NCBI GenBank assembly: GCA_019844455.1 | Contig: GCA_019844455.1_3938.1 | Source of the DNA: a phage | Length of the DNA stretch: 51,650 nucleotides | Strand: one strand, 5' to 3' | Part shown: piece by piece, positions 1,318 through 51,650 of the stretch | Layout: every line of letters begins with the position of its first letter | How positions within the stretch are numbered: position 1 is the first letter of the stretch | Made by a program: the position numbers and the translations under genes | The notes under the pieces: model-generated | Seen by the model: only the letters and a program-made list of their open reading frames with translations | Told to the model about the DNA's origin: nothing | Databases searched by the model: none

Positions 1318-1649
1318 TGGGAACATTAACTATTGATGGTAAGAATAAAATCCTCGCCACGCTAACCCCAACGACTATTATTTTACACAATGTAGACCCA
1401 ACGGCAGACCCTACAGCAAATAAGGTTACTCAGCCAGTGGCTATTTATTTTTCTGAACCGGATAACGGCTTAATTGCCTCAGAAGACACAGTTAATATTA
1501 CTGTTCCAGCTTCTGCAACGGTCTCACACTATAGCTTGTGGGATGCTAACGATAAATGCGTGGCAACTGGTGCTCTTAGCAAACCTCAATTCTTTGCTGA
1601 AGAAGGTATTTATGTTATCTCTTCAGTCTCTGTAGATTTAAACAAATAG
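1317..1649 (+). CDS. hypothetical protein (head module)
   Basis: 110-aa ORF, start overlaps upstream stop; no recognisable motif. Confidence 0.5.
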   Translation: MGTLTIDGKNKILATLTPTTIILHNVDPTADPTANKVTQPVAIYFSEPDNGLIASEDTVNITVPASATVSHYSLWDANDKCVATGALSKPQFFAEEGIYVISSVSVDLNK

Positions 1650-1660
1650 GGTGAGTAAAA

Positions 1661-3007
1661 ATGAGTTCGAATATCTTCAGACTTGCTGATAGATTATTCA
1701 ACCAACCTTTACTAGCCACTGAATCATTAGCTCACTCAGCAGCAACTTATGTGAATAACAGATTGCTGGGTGATGTCCAAGCAGCAGTAAACTTTGATAA
1801 ACCCAAAGGTGACGCAAGAAGTCTTTTAAAAGTAAAAGATGACATTGCTATTATCCCTATTATGGGTGGTTTAACTCATCGTATGACGTTCATTGATGCA
1901 ATGTGTACAGGTGGATTAAGCTCTTATGAGGGTTTACGTAGAGGCTTTGACGAAGCTTTAGCAGATGAGTCAATCAAGACTATTGTTCTGCATATTGATT
2001 CTGGTGGTGGTGAAGCTTCAGGTTGCTTTGAATTAGCACGTCACATCATGGCTTCAAGAGGCCAAAAGAAAATTATTGCTTATGTAGATGAGTTCGCTTG
2101 TTCCGCTGCATATGCTCTTGCATCTTCTGCTGAAGAAATTATTGCATCACCAGATGCAGATGTTGGTTCTATTGGTGTAATCATGGTTCATCAGGAATTA
2201 ACTAAGGCATTTGAAAAGAATGGCGTAACAATTAACGTCATCAAAGCTGGTGAGTTTAAAGGTATGGGTTCACCATTCCAAGCACTTTCAGAAGAAAGCA
2301 AAGAAAGACTTCAAAAGAGAATTAATGATACCTACGCAACCTTTACAGGTTTTGTAGCTGAAGCTCGTAATATCTCTGAAGAAGCTGTAAAGAATACTGA
2401 GGCGAATGTTTATTCTGCTCAGGAAGCTCTTGAACTTGGTTTAATTAACTCAATCATGTCTCAAGATGATTTCTTAAATTACTTACAAGGTTCTGAAGAG
2501 GCTCCTGTAAGTTTAAACGTTAACAATTCAGGTGAAGAAATGACTGAACAAGAAAAGCAAGAACTAGAGGCTTTGCGTCTTCAGGTTGCTCAAATGAAAG
2601 CCAAAGAACAGGAAGCTGCTTTGTCAGATTTGACTAATAAGATTTCTGCTTCTGCTGAAGCTTTTGGATTTGATGCAAAAGAAGCTGCAACGACTATTTT
2701 AGGTGCTGGTCTTGATAACCCTCTGAGTGTTCTGTTTATGAATGCTATGGAAGGTGCTAACCAGAAACTTAATGAAACTATCGCGTCCCATGCTTCTGCA
2801 ATGGAAGAAAAAGAATCAGAAATTACCAAGCTGAAAGAAACTGCTGGTGCTGTTCTTGAGCATTCTAATGCTATGGAAGAAATGGGTAATAACGGTGAAG
2901 CTGATTTGGTTGAAGAAGAAAAAGAACCAGCTAAGAATGCTTCCGAAGACACCGCTGAACAACGCAAACTGGCTCTCCAGAATGCTCTAAAATCTCTTAT
3001 CAAATAA
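1661..3007 (+). CDS. head maturation protease (S49/SppA-like) with C-terminal scaffold-like coiled-coil domain
   Basis: HIDSGGGEASG and EFACSAAYALASSAEEI motifs typical of S49 peptidases (lambda gpC-like); C-terminal ~170 aa is E/K/A-rich and helical; RBS GGGTGAG upstream. Confidence 0.8.
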   Translation: MSSNIFRLADRLFNQPLLATESLAHSAATYVNNRLLGDVQAAVNFDKPKGDARSLLKVKDDIAIIPIMGGLTHRMTFIDAMCTGGLSSYEGLRRGFDEALADESIKTIVLHIDSGGGEASGCFELARHIMASRGQKKIIAYVDEFACSAAYALASSAEEIIASPDADVGSIGVIMVHQELTKAFEKNGVTINVIKAGEFKGMGSPFQALSEESKERLQKRINDTYATFTGFVAEARNISEEAVKNTEANVYSAQEALELGLINSIMSQDDFLNYLQGSEEAPVSLNVNNSGEEMTEQEKQELEALRLQVAQMKAKEQEAALSDLTNKISASAEAFGFDAKEAATTILGAGLDNPLSVLFMNAMEGANQKLNETIASHASAMEEKESEITKLKETAGAVLEHSNAMEEMGNNGEADLVEEEKEPAKNASEDTAEQRKLALQNALKSLIK

Positions 3008-5887: not shown

Positions 5888-6461
5888 AAAAGGTCTAGTT
5901 AGAACCTTAGTGGATGTTATTGGTCACAGACTAGCTCGTGATAAAAATAATAGGCCAAATGTAATTAGAGCTTACCCTTCTGATAACGCAAATGACAAAG
6001 GTTTAAAACCTGACCAACCATTTATTACCGTGTATTGTCAAGATGCTGCAACCCCTTATGGTTGGGTTCTTGATAAGTTTGTTGAGGATGATGTAGTTTG
6101 CTACAGAATTGCTTTCCAGATTCCAGTACTAATTACGGTGAATGGTAAAGGCGCTCACAGTATTATGCTTGAGCTTAAACAACGATTAGAGATGAGTTCA
6201 GTCAGAGATTTAATTCTTGAAGAGACAGGGGCAACAGTTTTAGATACTGGAGCAATCCCGAATGACTACACTTATCTTAATACAGATTTCGAAAATTCTG
6301 CACCTCTTGTTGTAACTCTTGTAAAAAATTCAGTCCTGAAAGATGAACGTGGAAGTATTATTGAACGTGTTATTGTGGATGGTGAATTAGTTTACGAAGA
6401 AGGACAAGAGCCACCAGAATATACTATCCATCTAGATGTAGACTCCAAAGGGGTAAAATAA
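5862..6461 (+). CDS. hypothetical protein (tail completion candidate)
   Basis: 199-aa ORF directly upstream of sheath gene. Confidence 0.45.
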   Translation: MQLETAELEKGLVRTLVDVIGHRLARDKNNRPNVIRAYPSDNANDKGLKPDQPFITVYCQDAATPYGWVLDKFVEDDVVCYRIAFQIPVLITVNGKGAHSIMLELKQRLEMSSVRDLILEETGATVLDTGAIPNDYTYLNTDFENSAPLVVTLVKNSVLKDERGSIIERVIVDGELVYEEGQEPPEYTIHLDVDSKGVK

Positions 6462-44159: not shown

Positions 44160-46304
44160 ATGAACAAAGTACAGATTATTAAAAAGAATGGCTCACTTGA
44201 AGAACCTGATATCAAAAAAGTTTTAGCAGCAGTAACTAAGTCAGCTAACAGGGTTGGGTATAGAGAACTTCCACCAGATGTTACCCAAGCTCTTGAGTCA
44301 GCATTTATGAGGATTCTGGTAAAGTCCACTAAGCAGAATAATTTACTAATCTCGGTAAATGATATTCACAGTATTGTTGAGGGTGCTTTGGCAGAAGTTA
44401 ATCACGAGATTTATGAGTCTTACTCAACATATAGAAATTACCGTAAAGAGGTTGCTCAAAATTGGGATGCACTCTACCAGAAGACTAAAGATACACTCTT
44501 CTTAGGTGACCGTGAAAATGCTAACTTTGACAGCAGTTTAATTTCTACGAAAGGTTCAATTATCCGTGGTTACCTGACTAAAGAAATCTTTAAACAGTAT
44601 CATCTAACACCAGAGGAACTTGAAGCCATTGAGAAAGGCTTTATCTATATCCACGATTTGAGAGACCTGATTTTTGGTGGTATTAACTGTTGCCTGTTTG
44701 ACATTGGTAAAGTACTAAAAGGTGGCTTTGAAATGTCCGGCATTGAGTACTGTGAACCTAAATCTGTACTGTCAGCATTGCAGGTTATTGGTGACGTAGT
44801 ACTTTCAGCAACTGCACAGCAATTTGGTGGTTTTACTTTAGCAGAGATTGATAAGGTACTTGTACCGTATGCTAAGAAGTCTCTACGCTATCATGCTGAG
44901 AAAGCAGCATCTTACGGTATTCCTAAAGAACATTACCATAACTATGTCATGGAGCAGCTACAGATTGAATTAACTCAAGGCTTCCAGTCACTAGAGATGA
45001 AACTAAATACTGTACCTTGCAGCCGTGGTGATTTTGCATTCACAACTTTAACATTTGGGCTACTTGACTCAGATATGTCTAATGAAGACAACCGACTACA
45101 ATACATGATTGCAAGTACTCTCCTAGATGTTCGTATGAATGGACAAGGTAAGAGCAAAAAACCTGTTGTATTCCCTAAACTGGTTTATATCTATGACCAG
45201 AAGAGACATGATGAAAATATCTGTCAAGGTCACCTGTACAGTAAAGCTATTGAGTGTTGCTCTAAAGCGATGTATCCAGATTTCTTAAGCGTATCTGGTC
45301 ATGGTGCTGTAGCAGAAGCTTTTGAGCGTTCTGGCAAGGTAATTTCACCGATGGGTTGCAGAGCCTTCTTATCTCCATATCTGAATGAGGATGGGGAAGA
45401 GTTCTATGTTGGTCGTGCTAACATTGGCGCTGTATCTTTGAACTTGCCAATGATTTACCAGTATTCTAAAGAGAATGGTTTAGATTTCTGGAAAGAGCTT
45501 GATAAGTACCTAGAGATGATTCGCAGCTTCCACAAGAAACGCTACGAAATGATTGCTAATATGCCAGCAAGTTCTAACCCTCTTGCGTTCACACAAGGTG
45601 GTCTGTACAAAGGAACTAAGAAACCTACTGACAAGGTTGGTTGGGATATTGTGAAGTCCTTCACAGCTTCTTTTGGTGTTACTGCGCTTGATGAGTTGTC
45701 TGTTCTTGCTGAAGGTAAACGACTTCATGAAGTTGGAAGCTATAGTTTTGCATATGATGTTCTGGCATACATTAACATGAAAACCGAAGAGTTTAAAAAT
45801 GAAGATGGCTTCTTATATGCCGTCTATGGTACTCCAGCAGAATCACTATGTGGGACTCAGCTAAAACAGTTCAGAGATATGTTTGGGGTTATCAAAGGTG
45901 TTTCCGATAAGGAATACTTTACAAATAGTTTCCATATGAATGTTGCAGCAGACATCTCACCATTTGAGAAGCAGGACTTAGAAGAGCCATTCTTCCATAT
46001 CTGTAGAGGCGGTAGAATCCAGTATGTAAGAGTAGCTAACCCAGAAAACTTAACAGCACTTAAAAGTTGTATTACAAGAGGTATGTTGAAAGGTTTCTAT
46101 CAGGGACTTAACTTTGACTTAGCAATCTGTGAACATTGTGGTAACAGGCCAAAGGCTGATGTTGAAGAATGTGAAGTTTGCCACTCACATGATATCTCTG
46201 TGATTAACAGGGTGTGTGGGTATCTTGGATGGACTAAGATTAAAGGTGAATCCCGAATGAACGATGCAAAAATCGCTGAGATTCGTGACAGAGTTTCTAT
46301 GTAA
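44160..46304 (+). CDS. nrdD: anaerobic ribonucleoside-triphosphate reductase (class III)
   Basis: N-terminal ATP-cone, C-terminal zinc ribbon CEHCGN...CEVCH and glycyl-radical motif RVCGYLG. Confidence 0.9.
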   Translation: MNKVQIIKKNGSLEEPDIKKVLAAVTKSANRVGYRELPPDVTQALESAFMRILVKSTKQNNLLISVNDIHSIVEGALAEVNHEIYESYSTYRNYRKEVAQNWDALYQKTKDTLFLGDRENANFDSSLISTKGSIIRGYLTKEIFKQYHLTPEELEAIEKGFIYIHDLRDLIFGGINCCLFDIGKVLKGGFEMSGIEYCEPKSVLSALQVIGDVVLSATAQQFGGFTLAEIDKVLVPYAKKSLRYHAEKAASYGIPKEHYHNYVMEQLQIELTQGFQSLEMKLNTVPCSRGDFAFTTLTFGLLDSDMSNEDNRLQYMIASTLLDVRMNGQGKSKKPVVFPKLVYIYDQKRHDENICQGHLYSKAIECCSKAMYPDFLSVSGHGAVAEAFERSGKVISPMGCRAFLSPYLNEDGEEFYVGRANIGAVSLNLPMIYQYSKENGLDFWKELDKYLEMIRSFHKKRYEMIANMPASSNPLAFTQGGLYKGTKKPTDKVGWDIVKSFTASFGVTALDELSVLAEGKRLHEVGSYSFAYDVLAYINMKTEEFKNEDGFLYAVYGTPAESLCGTQLKQFRDMFGVIKGVSDKEYFTNSFHMNVAADISPFEKQDLEEPFFHICRGGRIQYVRVANPENLTALKSCITRGMLKGFYQGLNFDLAICEHCGNRPKADVEECEVCHSHDISVINRVCGYLGWTKIKGESRMNDAKIAEIRDRVSM

Positions 46305-47842: not shown

Positions 47843-47892
47843 TTATTCTGGCAAATGGACTAAGGTATAACTCCAATTGGTATCACTGAAGA

Positions 47893-47909
47893 AGAACTTC
47901 ATAAGTTCT
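47893..47909 (+). promoter_or_regulatory. perfect hairpin downstream of nrdG
   Basis: AGAACTT-CAT-AAGTTCT; weak U-tract so function uncertain. Confidence 0.3.
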
Positions 47910-48213: not shown

Positions 48214-48525
48214 ATGAGCAAAATCTATAACACTCGTAAATTACAGATTGCAATCCTGTGCCAGTTTATGGCTGATAAGCACAACTCACACTATTGTGGT
48301 ACAGGTTTCCTTATGCAAGGTCGTGGCTACATTAGCTTCAAAGAAGCTGTGAAGATGTACAATGAGCACCCTGAAGATGACAAAGAGTTGAAACAACTGA
48401 AGCTTACTTATGACAAGAGGCGTAAGAAAATTGTATGCTTGAACAACCTTATCAAGCAAACTGAAAACGTTTATGATGCAATTGGTGAAGAGGGTTTCTT
48501 AAAAGTCTTGAAAATAGCTCAGTAA
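48214..48525 (+). CDS. hypothetical protein
   Basis: 103-aa ORF followed by strong terminator. Confidence 0.45.
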   Translation: MSKIYNTRKLQIAILCQFMADKHNSHYCGTGFLMQGRGYISFKEAVKMYNEHPEDDKELKQLKLTYDKRRKKIVCLNNLIKQTENVYDAIGEEGFLKVLKIAQ

Positions 48526-48538
48526 ATGTATATGATTA

Positions 48539-48562
48539 GGGAACTGTAAAGGTTCCCTTTTT
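48539..48562 (+). terminator. intrinsic terminator
   Basis: GGGAAC / GTTCCC stem, 7-nt loop, then TTTTT. Confidence 0.7.
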
Positions 48563-48576
48563 ATTTTGGAGATAAT

Positions 48577-49092
48577 ATGTATCTGTCAAATCTGAAACGT
48601 TCTGCTGCAATGTCAGTGTTAAGACTCAGTTTTGAGGAACGTCAAGAGTTCATTGACTCCCACCAATACGACCCTTCCAACTCCAATCACATGATTCTCT
48701 GGAATCGTGAGAGTACTCGTGAAAGAGCATTATTTCGATATTACCCACACTACACCATAGATAATCTGTATGAATGTTTTGTTGTGAAGAACACCATTAC
48801 AGTACTCAATAAACTTTGCAGATACACAGGCAGTCAATCCTTCACATTAGGTCATCACAAACCTGTTACAAAAGGTGGTGAACATCACTGTGCAAACTGG
48901 TTTATCCAAACTAAAGCTGATAACCAGAAGCAAGGAGATAGCCTCCTAAGTATCCCTAAGATGACCTATGAAGAGCAAGAGAAATATATCAAAAATAATA
49001 TGCCAGATGTGCTTGACAACAACTATACAGATTTGGCAATATCTCTCCTGTTGAAGTTCGAGACAGTTTATAGGGCAACTTATAATGGCTAA
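48577..49092 (+). CDS. putative HNH-family endonuclease
   Basis: GHHKPVTKGGEHHCANW resembles HH-x2-P-x3-GG-x5-N HNH core; RBS GGAGA. Confidence 0.45.
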   Translation: MYLSNLKRSAAMSVLRLSFEERQEFIDSHQYDPSNSNHMILWNRESTRERALFRYYPHYTIDNLYECFVVKNTITVLNKLCRYTGSQSFTLGHHKPVTKGGEHHCANWFIQTKADNQKQGDSLLSIPKMTYEEQEKYIKNNMPDVLDNNYTDLAISLLLKFETVYRATYNG

Positions 49093-49363
49093 AGAAAAGT
49101 GGCAGATTTTACCATTAGTCAGTGAAGGAGGTAATGGTTGTGAAATGTACATGATACGTGGTCATGTTCCAGAGCCAATTGCACTTGAGATGGTAAACAA
49201 CTTTACAGATGGTTCTTACAAAGACTTAGGCGAACCAACTGTCAAGCAACAATGGGTTAAACCTGTACCAGACAGCACAGGTAACTGTAGTGTACTTTAT
49301 CACGTTGTAGACCCTGCAAAATGCAAATCTGCAATGGCAGTAACAAACGTAACTTTTGATTGA
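49085..49363 (+). CDS. hypothetical protein
   Basis: 92-aa ORF. Confidence 0.4.
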   Translation: MAKEKWQILPLVSEGGNGCEMYMIRGHVPEPIALEMVNNFTDGSYKDLGEPTVKQQWVKPVPDSTGNCSVLYHVVDPAKCKSAMAVTNVTFD

Positions 49364-49374
49364 GAGAGAAAACT

Positions 49375-50256
49375 ATGAAAACATCTATCCGTGTTACAGT
49401 TCATTCACCAACTAAAGGAACTCATGAAGAAGAGTTTAACATCATCCAATTTCCTTCTGGTGAGATTGGTGGACACTTTTCGCCAGAGTTTGTTGATTTC
49501 ACTGCTTATGCAGCATCATCCATCAACAATGTGATTATGATTGTAAAAGGTTATGATAAGGATACATTGTTTGCTGTGGCACTTGCTAAAGAAGCAATTG
49601 ATGATTTAATTCCTCATGATTATGCTTTAAAGACTGTCATCTTTTACTACTTACCAAATGCACGTTATGACCGTCACATGTTTAAAGGCGACGCAGCAGC
49701 TTTAAAGGTTTTTGCTAAACAGGTAAATGCAATGGGATTTGGTGCAGTCTGTGCAGTTGACCCTCACAGCTATGTACCAGATAACCTGTTTAACTGCTTC
49801 CAGAGTATTCCTCAAAAGGAAATTGCAGTCCACTATGCAAATGACCCACTGATTGATTACTTAGTAGCCCCAGATGCAGGTGCTGCTAAGAAGATTGCAG
49901 AGACTGCTAAAGAGGTGGATAAACCATATATCACAATGTCTAAAGTACGCAACCTTAAGACTGGTGAAATTACTGGTATGCGAATTCTTGATGATGTTGA
50001 TTTGACAGATAAAACCGTCATGATTCTGGATGATATCTGTGATGGTGGTCGAACCTTCATAGAAGCAGCTAAACATCTTCGTGAAGCAGGTGCAAAACGT
50101 GTGGAACTCTATGTAACACACGGTATCTTCTCTAAAGATGTTGAAAACCTTCTTGACAATGGCATTGACCACATCTACACTACAAACTCTTTAGGGGAAG
50201 CTAAAGACCGTGGCTTAACACATTATGGTCAAGTTACTGTAGCAAACCTTGATTGA
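49375..50256 (+). CDS. prs: ribose-phosphate pyrophosphokinase-like protein (Prs family; possible ADP-ribose pyrophosphokinase)
   Basis: Prs-like domain order incl. FPSGEIGG, YLPNARYDRH, AVDPHS, and PRTase loop MILDDICDGGRT; ATG at 49375 with GAGAGAG RBS. Confidence 0.75.
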   Translation: MKTSIRVTVHSPTKGTHEEEFNIIQFPSGEIGGHFSPEFVDFTAYAASSINNVIMIVKGYDKDTLFAVALAKEAIDDLIPHDYALKTVIFYYLPNARYDRHMFKGDAAALKVFAKQVNAMGFGAVCAVDPHSYVPDNLFNCFQSIPQKEIAVHYANDPLIDYLVAPDAGAAKKIAETAKEVDKPYITMSKVRNLKTGEITGMRILDDVDLTDKTVMILDDICDGGRTFIEAAKHLREAGAKRVELYVTHGIFSKDVENLLDNGIDHIYTTNSLGEAKDRGLTHYGQVTVANLD

Positions 50257-50265
50257 AACTTTATA

Positions 50266-50286
50266 GGGGCTTAAAAGCCCCATTTT
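50266..50286 (+). terminator. stem-loop/terminator between Prs-like and NAMPT-like genes
   Basis: GGGGC-TTAAAA-GCCCC followed by ATTTTG. Confidence 0.5.
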
Positions 50287-50301
50287 GAGAGAGATTAAAA
50301 G

Positions 50302-51650
50302 ATGACTAAATCACTTTATGCAGTACCAGCAGGTTTAAACGCAGATGCTTACAAATCTGGTCATGTTTACCAGTACCCTAGTGCAACAGAGTACTTGATG
50401 TTCAACCTGACACCACGTAGTGATAAATGGTTTAACAGCCCTTTAGCAATTGACGGTGTAGTGGCTTTTGGTATTCAACGTTTTGTTAAAGATTACTTGA
50501 TAGACCACTGGAATGCCACTTTCTTTGAACGTGATAAAAAAGAAGCCATTGATGAAATCTTAGAAGTCATGAATGGTGTTCTGGGTAAAGATGCTATCGG
50601 TCGAGAGCATTGGGAAGCACTTCACGACTTAGGTTATCTACCAGTTGAAGTATACGCTGTAGAAGAAGGTACAGTTGTTCCTATGCGTGTACCAATGATT
50701 GTCTTCCAGAACACTGTTTCAGGTTTCCATTGGGTAGCGGGATATCTGGAAGATGCTTTCTCTGCTGAGATTTGGAAGGCTTGTACCATTGCAACTATTG
50801 CATTGCATTATAAACGCATCTGTAAGAAGTGGGCTGACCTTACTTGCGACAATGACTTACATTTACCTTATCAGTGCCATGACTTTGCTATGCGTGGTAT
50901 GTCCGGCTTTACTGATGACGCATTTAACGCTGTAGGCCACTTAACCAGCTTTAAAGGGACTGATAGCTTCCCCGCTGTATATACAGCTAAACGCATCTAC
51001 GGACAGTCTTACCCAGTCTCTGATATTGGTGGTTCTGTACCAGCCACTGAACATTCTGTAATGTGTGCAAACATTGCTTGGGAAGGTGGTAACGAGTTGA
51101 TTGAAGAAGAAAGACGCTTTAAAGGTGAGTTACAAACCTTCCGTCGTTTCTTAACAGAAACTTACCCAACTGGTATTGCAAGTGTTGTTTCAGATACTTA
51201 TAACTTCTGGAGAACTGTATCAGTCATATTGCCAGAACTCCGTAAAGAGATTATGGAACGTGATGGCAAACTGGTAATTCGTCCTGATTCTGGAGACCCT
51301 GTACATATTGTCACAGGATACAAAGCAATCCATTTAGAGTGTGCTAAAAAGGCTTATTACGAACACCTAAGTAAGCTGGAAGCCAGCGACACAATGCTGA
51401 ATGCTGTTCTGAACATGAAGCTTGAAAACATCAATTATGGTATTGCTGGATGGCTACTGTCAGAAGGTTACGAAATGGTTGTTGACAGAGAAGACTTTGA
51501 AGTTGCTGATACAGTGCTGTTGAAAAATGCTTATATGGTTGGTTCTGCAAACGTTGTAACACGTCCTGTAGCAGAGATTGATGGAGCTATTAAGACCCTG
51601 TATAACATCTTCGGAGGGACTATCAACTCCAAAGGTTTTAAGGTACTGGA
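50302..51650 (+). CDS. nadV: nicotinamide phosphoribosyltransferase family protein (NAMPT/NadV-like), 3' end beyond window
   Basis: DAYKSGHVYQYP, FAMRGMSG, SFKGTDSFP, SVPATEHS, VVSDTYNFW, IRPDSGDP match conserved NAMPT segments; frame open to window end. Confidence 0.8.
   Translation, partial: MTKSLYAVPAGLNADAYKSGHVYQYPSATEYLMFNLTPRSDKWFNSPLAIDGVVAFGIQRFVKDYLIDHWNATFFERDKKEAIDEILEVMNGVLGKDAIGREHWEALHDLGYLPVEVYAVEEGTVVPMRVPMIVFQNTVSGFHWVAGYLEDAFSAEIWKACTIATIALHYKRICKKWADLTCDNDLHLPYQCHDFAMRGMSGFTDDAFNAVGHLTSFKGTDSFPAVYTAKRIYGQSYPVSDIGGSVPATEHSVMCANIAWEGGNELIEEERRFKGELQTFRRFLTETYPTGIASVVSDTYNFWRTVSVILPELRKEIMERDGKLVIRPDSGDPVHIVTGYKAIHLECAKKAYYEHLSKLEASDTMLNAVLNMKLENINYGIAGWLLSEGYEMVVDREDFEVADTVLLKNAYMVGSANVVTRPVAEIDGAIKTLYNIFGGTINSKGFKVL

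Follow-up and report, generated by a model that had tools for sequence, protein, structure and literature searches.

The window, a 51,650-nt stretch of phage DNA that represents ~60% of the genome, ends in two adjacent genes, adps and namat, which lie on the same strand (Table 1). Their source is a FelixO1-like coliphage, a Felixounavirus, as the DNA of the window is 95-98% identical to that of SP22, wV8 and related phages, and SP22 is the best hit (97.9%) among the 249 FelixO1-like phage records with a match to the region. The gene order, from nrdD to nrdG followed by four small ORFs, adps and namat, is the same as in Escherichia phage JohannRWettstein (Bas63), and the two genes are the positional orthologues of bas63_0079 and bas63_0080. 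In Pfam and PHROG scans, the flanking ORFs of the window and its relatives matched only families of unknown function. A consensus scan of 48500-51650 for promoters and terminators returned sites no more often than in shuffled sequence.

Table 1. Features of the adps-namat locus, with positions in the window.
Feature	Position	Strand	Basis
TTGAGAGAGA, purine-rich Shine-Dalgarno-like motif, 5 nt before the ATG of adps	49360..49369	+	sequence reading
adps, predicted ADP-ribose pyrophosphate synthetase, Prs family, 293 aa and stop	49375..50256	+	family matches, orthology, residues
Divergent-allele patch, N-terminal 180 codons of adps	49375..49914	+	sliding-window identity to Bas63
GC-rich hairpin between the genes (stem GGGGCT/AGCCCC, 6 bp; loop, 4 nt), then ATTTTG	50266..50281	+	RNA fold
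TTGAGAGAGA, second copy, 7 nt before the ATG of namat	50285..50294	+	sequence reading
namat, predicted nicotinamide ADP-ribose transferase, 5′ 1349 nt, codons 1-449 of ~593	50302..51650	+	family matches, orthology
Selectivity-clamp loop (SCL), codons 39-50, R-S-D-K42-W43-F-N-S-P-L-A-I	50416..50451	+	identical to Bas63
Ounavirinae-specific insertion 1, Namat residues 258-275	51073..51126	+	absent from SPbetaL1 and FADO Namat
Ounavirinae-specific insertion 2, Namat residues 344-427, ~77 extra residues	51331..51582	+	absent from SPbetaL1 and FADO Namat

The adps gene opens with ATG at 49375. A preliminary description of this DNA had placed a Prs-family protein of 294 aa here; the family is borne out by PHROG, Pfam and NCBIfam, but the length is 293 aa, and 294 codons are reached only if the stop is counted. 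An alternative TTG start at 49360 was dropped since the relatives all annotate an 882-nt CDS; this TTG also sits within the purine-rich Shine-Dalgarno-like motif and is thus disfavoured. Adps matches PHROG 619 ‘ribose-phosphate pyrophosphokinase’ (E 8.7e-97) as well as PF00156 and PF14572, but the Pfam matches span residues 160-274 only, and the Pfam Prs N-terminal domain was not detected in the protein. With 121 bits Adps passes the cut-off of the broad NCBIfam subfamily model TIGR01251 (113 bits), whereas it falls below that of every NCBIfam Prs equivalog, the best being NF002095 (103 versus 296 bits). In sequence, Adps is identical (100%) to that of SP22 and 79% identical to bas63_0079. Its match to the biochemically characterised Adps of Bacillus phage SPbetaL1 (36%, 99.8 bits) is closer than that to E. 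coli Prs (29%, 61 bits). The ATP-site and catalytic motifs are those common to the Prs family: K190 aligns with the catalytic lysine K162 of SPbetaL1 Adps (K197 of B. subtilis Prs), and F26, G29, E30, R97, D99, R100, H131 and D219-D220 are invariant in the Adps alignment.

Exactly 45 nt (50257-50301) separate the two genes, and the spacer folds into a GC-rich hairpin, in agreement with the gap and stem-loop noted beforehand. In its 61-nt context the RNA hairpin, GGGGCU-UAAA-AGCCCC, reaches -12.9 kcal/mol (z = -2.6), and one of 200 shuffled sequences folds as well. It is retained in SP22 and Bas63 with a single substitution, which falls in the loop. The consensus scan did not call the hairpin a terminator, as only four T residues follow. 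In some relatives, an HNH homing-endonuclease gene fills the spacer and the hairpin is missing. Each gene is preceded by a copy of TTGAGAGAGA, and both copies probably act as ribosome-binding sites: the adps-proximal copy overlaps the TGA stop codon of the upstream ORF (49085-49363), and the namat-proximal decamer is kept in SP22 and Bas63.

The namat gene starts with ATG at 50302, and its reading frame stays open as far as the window reaches. The NAMPT-like gene of the preliminary description therefore stands as to family, with the correction that it is cut by the window end, ~144 C-terminal residues lying beyond it. Namat matches PHROG 16547 (E 1e-152) and PHROG 448 (E 6e-145), both ‘nicotinamide phosphoribosyl transferase’, together with PF04095, PF18127 and NCBIfam NF006629 (E 2e-98). 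These NAMPT-family matches, like the Prs-family matches of Adps, are far beyond chance. Namat is 98% identical to bas63_0080 and, over the shared part, 98% identical to its SP22 counterpart. It scores higher against the crystallised SPbetaL1 Namat (43%, 299 bits) than against an Nmnat-associated, NARP2-type Nampt (28%, 115 bits). The full-length Bas63 Namat likewise finds SPbetaL1 Namat in the PDB with 430 bits versus 178 bits for Xanthomonas Nampt and 144 bits for human NAMPT. The comparison with Prs/NadV and Adps/Namat sequences proposed in the preliminary description, made here by profiles and pairwise scores, places Adps nearer to SPbetaL1 Adps than to E. coli Prs and Namat nearer to Namat than to Nampt.

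The residues that are diagnostic for Namat were inspected individually. The catalytic core D15, Y17, F195, R198, D221, H251, R327 and D329 is fully kept; it corresponds to D13, Y15, F189, R192, D215, the catalytic His, R306 and D308 of SPbetaL1 Namat (PMC12774641). In the selectivity-clamp loop, the third residue is required to be Arg, Lys or Tyr, and S40-D41-K42-W43 of the window Namat constitutes the Lys-type loop of Bas63. When this third residue is Lys, as exemplified by Bas63, the next residue stacks on the adenine (PMC12774641). The selectivity-clamp helix (SCH) is defined by GS-X-phi-X-phi-X-phi-TRD, a motif in which the X residues are aromatic. Its site lies ~40 codons past the window end at codon 449, and the C-terminal quarter of Namat, comprising the SCH and part of the NAD+ site, was read from the relatives. 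All six full-length Ounavirinae orthologues carry GSYTYQY(M/L)TRD, with Met in SP22, Bas63 and Mushroom and Leu in Sf14 and SUSP1.

This arrangement corresponds to a published system. NARP1 was defined on bas63_0079/bas63_0080 of Bas63, and its criterion is an Adps-clade Prs homologue with a Namat homologue within 10 genes (Osterman et al., bioRxiv 10.1101/2024.02.11.579819). In the window, adps and namat are neighbours on the same strand, 45 nt apart. The same study lists SP22 and wV8 in its Tables S1/S2 as ‘Namat within 10 genes: Yes’ and ‘Adps-associated’ (bioRxiv 10.1101/2024.02.11.579819). The gene pair is very likely the two-gene NARP1 operon (adps-namat) of Felixounavirus. The preference of the preliminary description for a NARP1-type module over classical salvage is upheld by the orthology to the Bas63 operon, by the diagnostic residues inside the window and by the lack of an NMNAT gene at the locus.

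By analogy with the characterised homologues, the pathway would be triggered when a NAD+-depleting defence (SIR2-HerA, Thoeris, DSR1, DSR2 or SEFIR) splits NAD+ and so releases ADP-ribose and nicotinamide. Adps would then move the beta,gamma-diphosphate of ATP to the 1″-OH of ADP-ribose, yielding ADPR-pyrophosphate (ADPR-PP), and Namat would exchange the pyrophosphate for nicotinamide to give NAD+ directly. Such a route would bypass both the NMN intermediate and NMN adenylyltransferase. Genetic and biochemical data on the homologues agree with this scheme. Bas63 devoid of genes 79-80 is ~20-fold more sensitive to SIR2-HerA; ADPR-PP was seen by LC-MS only when wild-type Bas63 met the defence, and the deletion abolished it (bioRxiv 10.1101/2024.02.11.579819). 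The deletion of the FADO operon (DSR2) and the knock-in of the SPbetaL1 operon (Thoeris) provide further evidence of anti-defence activity, and enzymology and structures have been published for the DyoEdafos homologues as for those of SPbetaL1. The systems named as defeated are Thoeris, DSR1, DSR2, SIR2-HerA and SEFIR (bioRxiv 10.1101/2024.02.11.579819); the preliminary description was right to list Thoeris and DSR, but CBASS, which it added, is not named in the paper. Orthology suggests that the operon would likewise protect the source phage from NAD+-depleting defence.

The annotation of the relatives implies a different route, in which a true PRPP synthetase and a NadV/NAMPT enzyme make NMN, which is converted to NAD+ via the host NadR or PncC/NadD. 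In nearly all GenBank records, the first product is named ‘ribose-phosphate pyrophosphokinase’ and the second ‘nicotinamide phosphoribosyltransferase’; both genes were read in this way in the Felix O1 genome paper, and the TIGR01251 score would fit such a reading. SPbetaL1 Namat also retains the formation of NMN from PRPP in vitro, and the window Namat may keep some of this classical activity. However, the Prs equivalog scores and the undetectable Prs N-terminal domain of the window Adps speak against a true PRPP synthetase. Purified SPbetaL1 Adps converted ADPR and ATP to ADPR-PP with no measurable Prs-type product, from which Osterman et al. conclude that it is not a Prs; Bas63 Adps, according to the authors, purified poorly (bioRxiv 10.1101/2024.02.11.579819). 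Namat offered ADPR-PP and PRPP together formed NAD+ only, which points to a preference for ADPR-PP. Moreover, wild-type Bas63, in which ADPR-PP accumulates, overcame SIR2-HerA even in a host deficient in pncC and nadR (bioRxiv 10.1101/2024.02.11.579819), so that NMN adenylyltransferase is dispensable, which answers the refuting condition set in the preliminary description. Classical salvage has already been refuted for the Bas63 orthologue, and we consider it highly improbable for the window operon.

An NMN adenylyltransferase or Nudix enzyme encoded elsewhere in the genome could instead complement a Nampt that makes NMN from PRPP, as in the NARP2 pathway of Vibrio phage KVP40. Namat does belong to the NAMPT superfamily, and the window covers only about three-fifths of the genome. 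Nevertheless, Pfam and PHROG scans of the four upstream ORFs in the window and of the ORFs that follow the operon in Bas63 and SP22 revealed no domain of the NMNAT, Nudix, Macro or RyR type. None of these genes appears in the annotation of Bas63, which was covered over the whole genome for NMNAT and Nudix. In five relatives, no NMN adenylyltransferase gene lies downstream of the operon, where the preliminary description would have taken one, together with canonical Prs activity, as evidence for ordinary salvage. Together with the lower identity of Namat to the Nmnat-associated Nampt than to SPbetaL1 Namat and with the listing of wV8 and SP22 as ‘Adps-associated’ rather than ‘Nmnat-associated’ (bioRxiv 10.1101/2024.02.11.579819), this leaves a NARP2-type system hardly credible. 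With no gene for an NMNAT, Nudix, Macro or RyR protein nearby, the locus is a minimal two-gene NARP1.

Within this NARP1 operon, the first half of adps stands out. Sliding-window identity to Bas63 drops to 57-79% in the DNA of the patch compared with 90-97% in its flanks; at the protein level, the first 180 residues are 68% identical to Bas63, while residues 181-293 are 96% identical. The window carries the wV8/SP22-type allele and not the Bas63 type. Since synonymous sites in the patch are saturated and omega is ~0.11, positive selection on the Adps N-terminus was rejected, and the pattern indicates an old, long-separated allele that was moved by recombination. Such divergence from the tested Bas63 allele raises the question of whether the wV8/SP22-type Adps, although derived from NARP1, has shifted in specificity or regulation through its N-terminal half, for example towards ADPR-1″-phosphate or a cyclic ADPR product. 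Defences with non-canonical products do exist (aRES). The omega value, however, reflects ordinary purifying selection, and the Prs-family catalytic motifs are invariant in both alleles and in Bacillus-phage Adps. In addition, phages in the known cases deal with such products by means of further genes (Adpp, RyDEP), neither of which was found here. A shift of this kind is thus very unlikely, and the wV8/SP22-type Adps probably shares the substrate specificity of the tested homologues.

The second variable part of the operon is formed by the two insertions in Namat. Insertion 1 (18 aa) is longer in Mooglevirus and Suspvirus, to which the Felixounavirus sequence is 28% identical. Insertion 2 is also missing from the NAMPTs of solved structure. 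By tblastn, it was found in 254 phage records, nearly all of which are Ounavirinae by organism name, and always inside namat. Between genera it is 42-44% identical, in comparison with 77-90% for the Namat core. The two lineage-specific surface insertions together (28-44%) thus evolve far more rapidly than the core. No Pfam domain matched insertion 2. A single-sequence AF2 model of a 95-aa segment spanning it (mean pLDDT 67) comprised three confident helices and, after them, a beta region of poor prediction quality. The best Foldseek match of this model in the PDB reached only E 0.57, so that insertion 2 was given no fold. It is conceivable, though doubtful, that the Namat insertions and the Adps N-terminal alleles are variable modules that add a further layer of arms race to NARP1. 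These modules might serve to escape a host factor by which the NARP1 enzymes are bound, inhibited or sensed, or might instead mediate transient docking of Adps and Namat to channel the labile ADPR-PP. We did not find the insertions or the diverged Adps alleles discussed in the literature consulted; they pose small questions for enzymologists.

The operon in the window is a rediscovery of the published NARP1, already described in the same phage genus. There is nothing new in its core, because the orthologous Bas63 operon defined the system and SP22 and wV8 have been catalogued. The papers refer to the phage by its strain name, Bas63, which is why Felixounavirus and NARP1 were not found together in the literature. 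The practical value of the assignment lies partly in annotation, as every annotated record among the matches listed still has ‘ribose-phosphate pyrophosphokinase’ for the first gene and ‘nicotinamide’ or ‘nicotinate phosphoribosyltransferase’ for the second. Phages of the FelixO1 type are also widely used in the biocontrol and therapy of Salmonella and E. coli. A minimal NARP1 predicts that they withstand SIR2-HerA, DSR, Thoeris and SEFIR-type defences. They should stay sensitive to aRES-type defences, whose cleavage of NAD+ gives ADPR-1P, because neither Adpp nor any Macro or RyR gene is present in or beside the operon.

Among known systems, bacterial Prs (EC 2.7.6.1) and NadV/NAMPT (EC 2.4.2.12) share with the window proteins their folds, chemistry and ATP-site and catalytic motifs. 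In both pathways, pyrophosphate is transferred to the C1 hydroxyl of a ribose and then displaced by nicotinamide. They differ in that the predicted substrate is ADP-ribose instead of ribose-5-phosphate and in that the window Adps scores under the Prs equivalog cut-offs. KVP40-type NARP2 also employs a phage enzyme of the NAMPT superfamily to restore NAD+ under NAD+-depleting defence, but it proceeds from PRPP through NMN and an adenylyltransferase, whereas the window operon has no Nmnat gene nearby. The Adps/Namat core is common to NARP1-AP of Vibrio phage Gary, which adds the Macro-domain phosphatase Adpp, and to RyDEP NARP1 of mycobacteriophage DyoEdafos, which adds a RyR-domain glycosidase; the window operon has neither a Macro nor a RyR gene.

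SPbetaL1 NARP1 consists of Adps (gene 190) and Namat (gene 191; PDB 9w5w and 9w5x) (PMC12774641). It resembles the window operon in pathway, gene order, the catalytic lysine (K162 for K190), the Namat core and the SCH motif of the Ounavirinae orthologues, while Adps is just 36% and Namat 43% identical. Clamp-loop stacking would involve Lys-Trp in the window Namat, with a loop longer by 4 residues, compared with Arg40 in SPbetaL1, and the Ounavirinae Namat has two extra insertions of 18 and ~77 aa. The SPbetaL1 genes abut without spacer or hairpin, unlike the window genes with their 45-nt gap. The closest system is the NARP1 of Bas63, from which the window operon differs in the N-terminal 180 residues of Adps, which belong to the other, deeply diverged allele (68%). 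Both share the genus, genomic position, two-gene layout, 45-nt spacer and hairpin, a Namat of 98% identity with the same clamp loop, and the C-terminal 113 residues of Adps at 96% identity.

The source of the window is a Felixounavirus, a FelixO1-like myovirus. A 2.6-kb segment spanning the gene pair matches 249 phage records, best Escherichia phage SP22 (97.9%), followed by wV8, O157 typing phages and others, and the upstream 24-kb stretch is ~95% identical to the same phage group. These records annotate the pair as PRPP synthetase and nicotinamide or nicotinate phosphoribosyltransferase, and the Felix O1 genome paper interpreted both genes as nucleotide and NAD precursor metabolism. The adjacent Prs-like (adps) and NAMPT-like (namat) genes of the preliminary description are present with a stem-loop in their 45-nt spacer, while the length of the first protein is corrected from 294 to 293 aa. 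The adps product matches PHROG 619 'ribose-phosphate pyrophosphokinase' (E = 8.7e-97), Pfam PF00156 and PF14572 (residues 160-274) and NCBIfam TIGR01251 (121 bits; cut-off 113). The namat product matches PHROG nicotinamide phosphoribosyltransferase families (E = 1e-152 and 6e-145), Pfam PF04095 and PF18127, and NCBIfam NF006629 (E = 2e-98). The opposite strand carries only short, spurious ORFs across the region. The repeated decamer is probably a ribosome-binding motif common to adps and namat; in Salmonella phage Mushroom, namat is preceded by the related AGAGAGAGA.

Features of the gene pair, with spacer genes of two relatives in the coordinates of their own records
Feature	Coordinates	Strand	Description
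adps	49375-50256	+	ORF from ATG 49375, stop codon ends at 50256; product 293 aa
adps-namat spacer	50257-50301	+	45 nt
Spacer hairpin GGGGCU-UAAA-AGCCCC	50266-50281	+	61-nt context -12.9 kcal/mol, z = -2.6
Decamer TTGAGAGAGA, two identical copies	49360-49369 and 50285-50294	+	5 nt and 7 nt before the adps and namat starts, respectively
namat	50302-51650	+	ATG 50302, open through the last base of the window; 449 aa inside the window
Namat insertion 1	51073-51126	+	Residues 258-275, 18 aa
Namat insertion 2	51331-51582	+	Residues 344-427, ~77 aa extra
Spacer HNH/AP2 gene, Salmonella phage Mushroom (L008)	2391-2882		492 nt
Spacer HNH/AP2 gene, phiSUSP1 (L010)	1446-1937		492 nt

The two-enzyme phage pathway outlined in the preliminary description is NARP1, in which Adps and Namat make NAD+ from ADP-ribose (ADPR) and nicotinamide (Osterman et al., bioRxiv 10.1101/2024.02.11.579819). 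NARP1 was discovered on genes 79-80 of the BASEL phage Bas63 (JohannRWettstein), a Felixounavirus (10.1101/2024.02.11.579819). In the Bas63 record, bas63_0079 and bas63_0080 lie at the same genomic position as the window pair, in the order nrdD, nrdG, four small ORFs, bas63_0079-bas63_0080, small ORFs and rIIA/rIIB. The window Namat is 98% identical to bas63_0080 across all 449 residues, and the window Adps is 79% identical to bas63_0079 and 100% to the SP22 protein. Supplementary tables of the preprint list the SP22 and wV8 proteins as Adps with 'Namat within 10 genes: Yes' and as 'Adps-associated' Namat (10.1101/2024.02.11.579819).

Deletion of genes 79-80 from Bas63 reduced plating on SIR2-HerA cells ~20-fold and deepened NAD+ depletion, and wild-type Bas63 overcame SIR2-HerA even when the host had neither pncC nor nadR (10.1101/2024.02.11.579819). 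ADPR-pyrophosphate (ADPR-PP) was seen only when operon and defence were together. Purified Adps of the Bacillus phage SPbetaL1 converted ADPR and ATP to ADPR-PP and yielded no measurable Prs-type product, from which the preprint concludes that it is not Prs (10.1101/2024.02.11.579819). Purified Namat offered ADPR-PP and PRPP jointly made NAD+ only, and activity was lost on the substitutions K162A and R306G.

The comparison of both proteins with classical enzymes, proposed in the preliminary description, placed them with the Adps/Namat references. The window Adps scored 99.8 bits against SPbetaL1 Adps (36% identity) versus 61 bits against E. coli Prs (29%), and fell below every NCBIfam Prs equivalog cut-off. 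The window Namat scored 299 bits against SPbetaL1 Namat (43%) versus 115 bits against the Nmnat-associated Nampt of a Cronobacter phage (28%), which is of the NARP2 type. Searched against the PDB, the Bas63 Namat orthologue scored 430 bits with SPbetaL1 Namat, 178 with Xanthomonas Nampt and ~144 with human NAMPT.

At the residue level, K190 of the window Adps aligned to SPbetaL1 K162. ATP-site and catalytic motifs shared by the Prs family (F26, G29, E30, R97, D99, R100, H131 and D219-D220) showed no variation in an alignment of E. coli Prs with two Adps of Bacillus phages and both Felixounavirus Adps alleles. Residues D15, Y17, F195, R198, D221, H251, R327 and D329 of the window Namat are equivalents of SPbetaL1 core residues. 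Crystal structures of Namat revealed a NAMPT-like catalytic core and an adenine-binding 'selectivity clamp' with two parts, the variable loop SCL and the helix motif SCH, a conserved GSXphiXphiXphiTRD, with Bas63 as an example of an SCL Lys followed by a stacking residue (PMC12774641). The clamp loop of the window Namat, S40-D41-K42-W43, is the same as in Bas63. The window ends, at codon 449, before the SCH motif; in relatives the motif is intact, as GSYTYQYMTRD in SP22, Bas63 and Mushroom and as GSYTYQYLTRD in Sf14 and SUSP1.

The preliminary description took an NMNAT gene directly after the pair as a sign of ordinary salvage. In SP22, Bas63, Mushroom, Sf14 and phiSUSP1, namat is followed by two or three small ORFs; rIIA comes next in all but SP22, whose record ends before it. 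Pfam scans of these downstream ORFs and of the four upstream window ORFs gave no hit to NMNAT, Nudix, Macro or RyR, the flanking ORFs fall in PHROGs of unknown function, and the whole Bas63 genome has no annotated gene of these kinds. The operon is therefore a minimal two-gene NARP1. We rejected NARP2, which uses Nampt and Nmnat via NMN, as no NMNAT/Nudix partner was found in the flanking ORFs or the Bas63 annotation, and likewise NARP1-AP (Macro phosphatase Adpp) and RyDEP-extended NARP1 for want of a Macro and a RyR gene, respectively. Orthology, gene content and residues, together with the literature on orthologues and homologues, support the NARP1-type interpretation.

By analogy with those orthologues and homologues, on which chemistry and phenotype rest, NADase effectors would release ADPR, and Adps would move pyrophosphate from ATP onto its 1'' hydroxyl. 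Namat would then put nicotinamide in place of that pyrophosphate, giving NAD+. The Adps allele of the window presumably behaves like the characterised ones. Lacking an Adpp gene, the phage is predicted to gain no protection against aRES-type cleavage, whose product is ADPR-1''-phosphate.

Relative to Bas63, the first 540 nt of adps (49375-49914) form a mosaic patch. DNA identity drops sharply from ~95% to 57% at the start codon, ranges from 57 to 79% within the patch and returns to ~90% near 49850. Codons 1-180 show 68% protein identity to Bas63, with saturated synonymous sites and omega ~0.11. Together these values point to an old allele moved by recombination; recent positive selection on this part was rejected on the saturation and low omega. 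Alignments of adps to different relatives begin at nt 1, 54 or 276, and thus at least three 5' variants exist in the genus.

The stretch between adps and namat is a homing site: many relatives, Mushroom and phiSUSP1 among them, have a 492-nt homing-endonuclease gene of the HNH/AP2 type exactly there in place of the hairpin, which is therefore dispensable to the operon. A second divergent patch (48270-48560; 57-62% DNA identity to Bas63, flanks ~92%) spans most of a small ORF (48214-48525; DUF7390, PHROG 4462, both of unknown function). The window nrdD (44160-46304) is a single uninterrupted 714-aa ORF, whereas Bas63 nrdD (record L002, 1610-4496) is annotated as a two-piece join split by a homing-endonuclease segment (bas63_0068). 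Bas63 also carries a small ORF after nrdG, bas63_0074 (276 nt, L002 ~5997-6272), which is absent from the window, leaving a ~240-nt alignment gap at 47861-47893.

The two Namat insertions occur in Ounavirinae but are absent from the Namats of SPbetaL1 and FADO and from NAMPTs with solved structures. All tblastn hits to insertion 2 lay in namat; they came from 254 phage records, nearly all Ounavirinae by organism name. The insertions evolve much faster than the core, with identities of 28% and 42-44% from one genus to another against 77-90%. They matched no Pfam domain; a single-sequence AF2 model of the larger one gave three helices (pLDDT 67), and a Foldseek search of the PDB with it matched nothing. 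Word searches of PMC12774641, which reports the Namat structures, turned up no mention of the insertions. The remaining novelty is limited to these variable modules, the Adps N-terminal allele and the Namat insertions; the system itself is already known from the same genus, with closely related proteins and an Adps identical to that of SP22.
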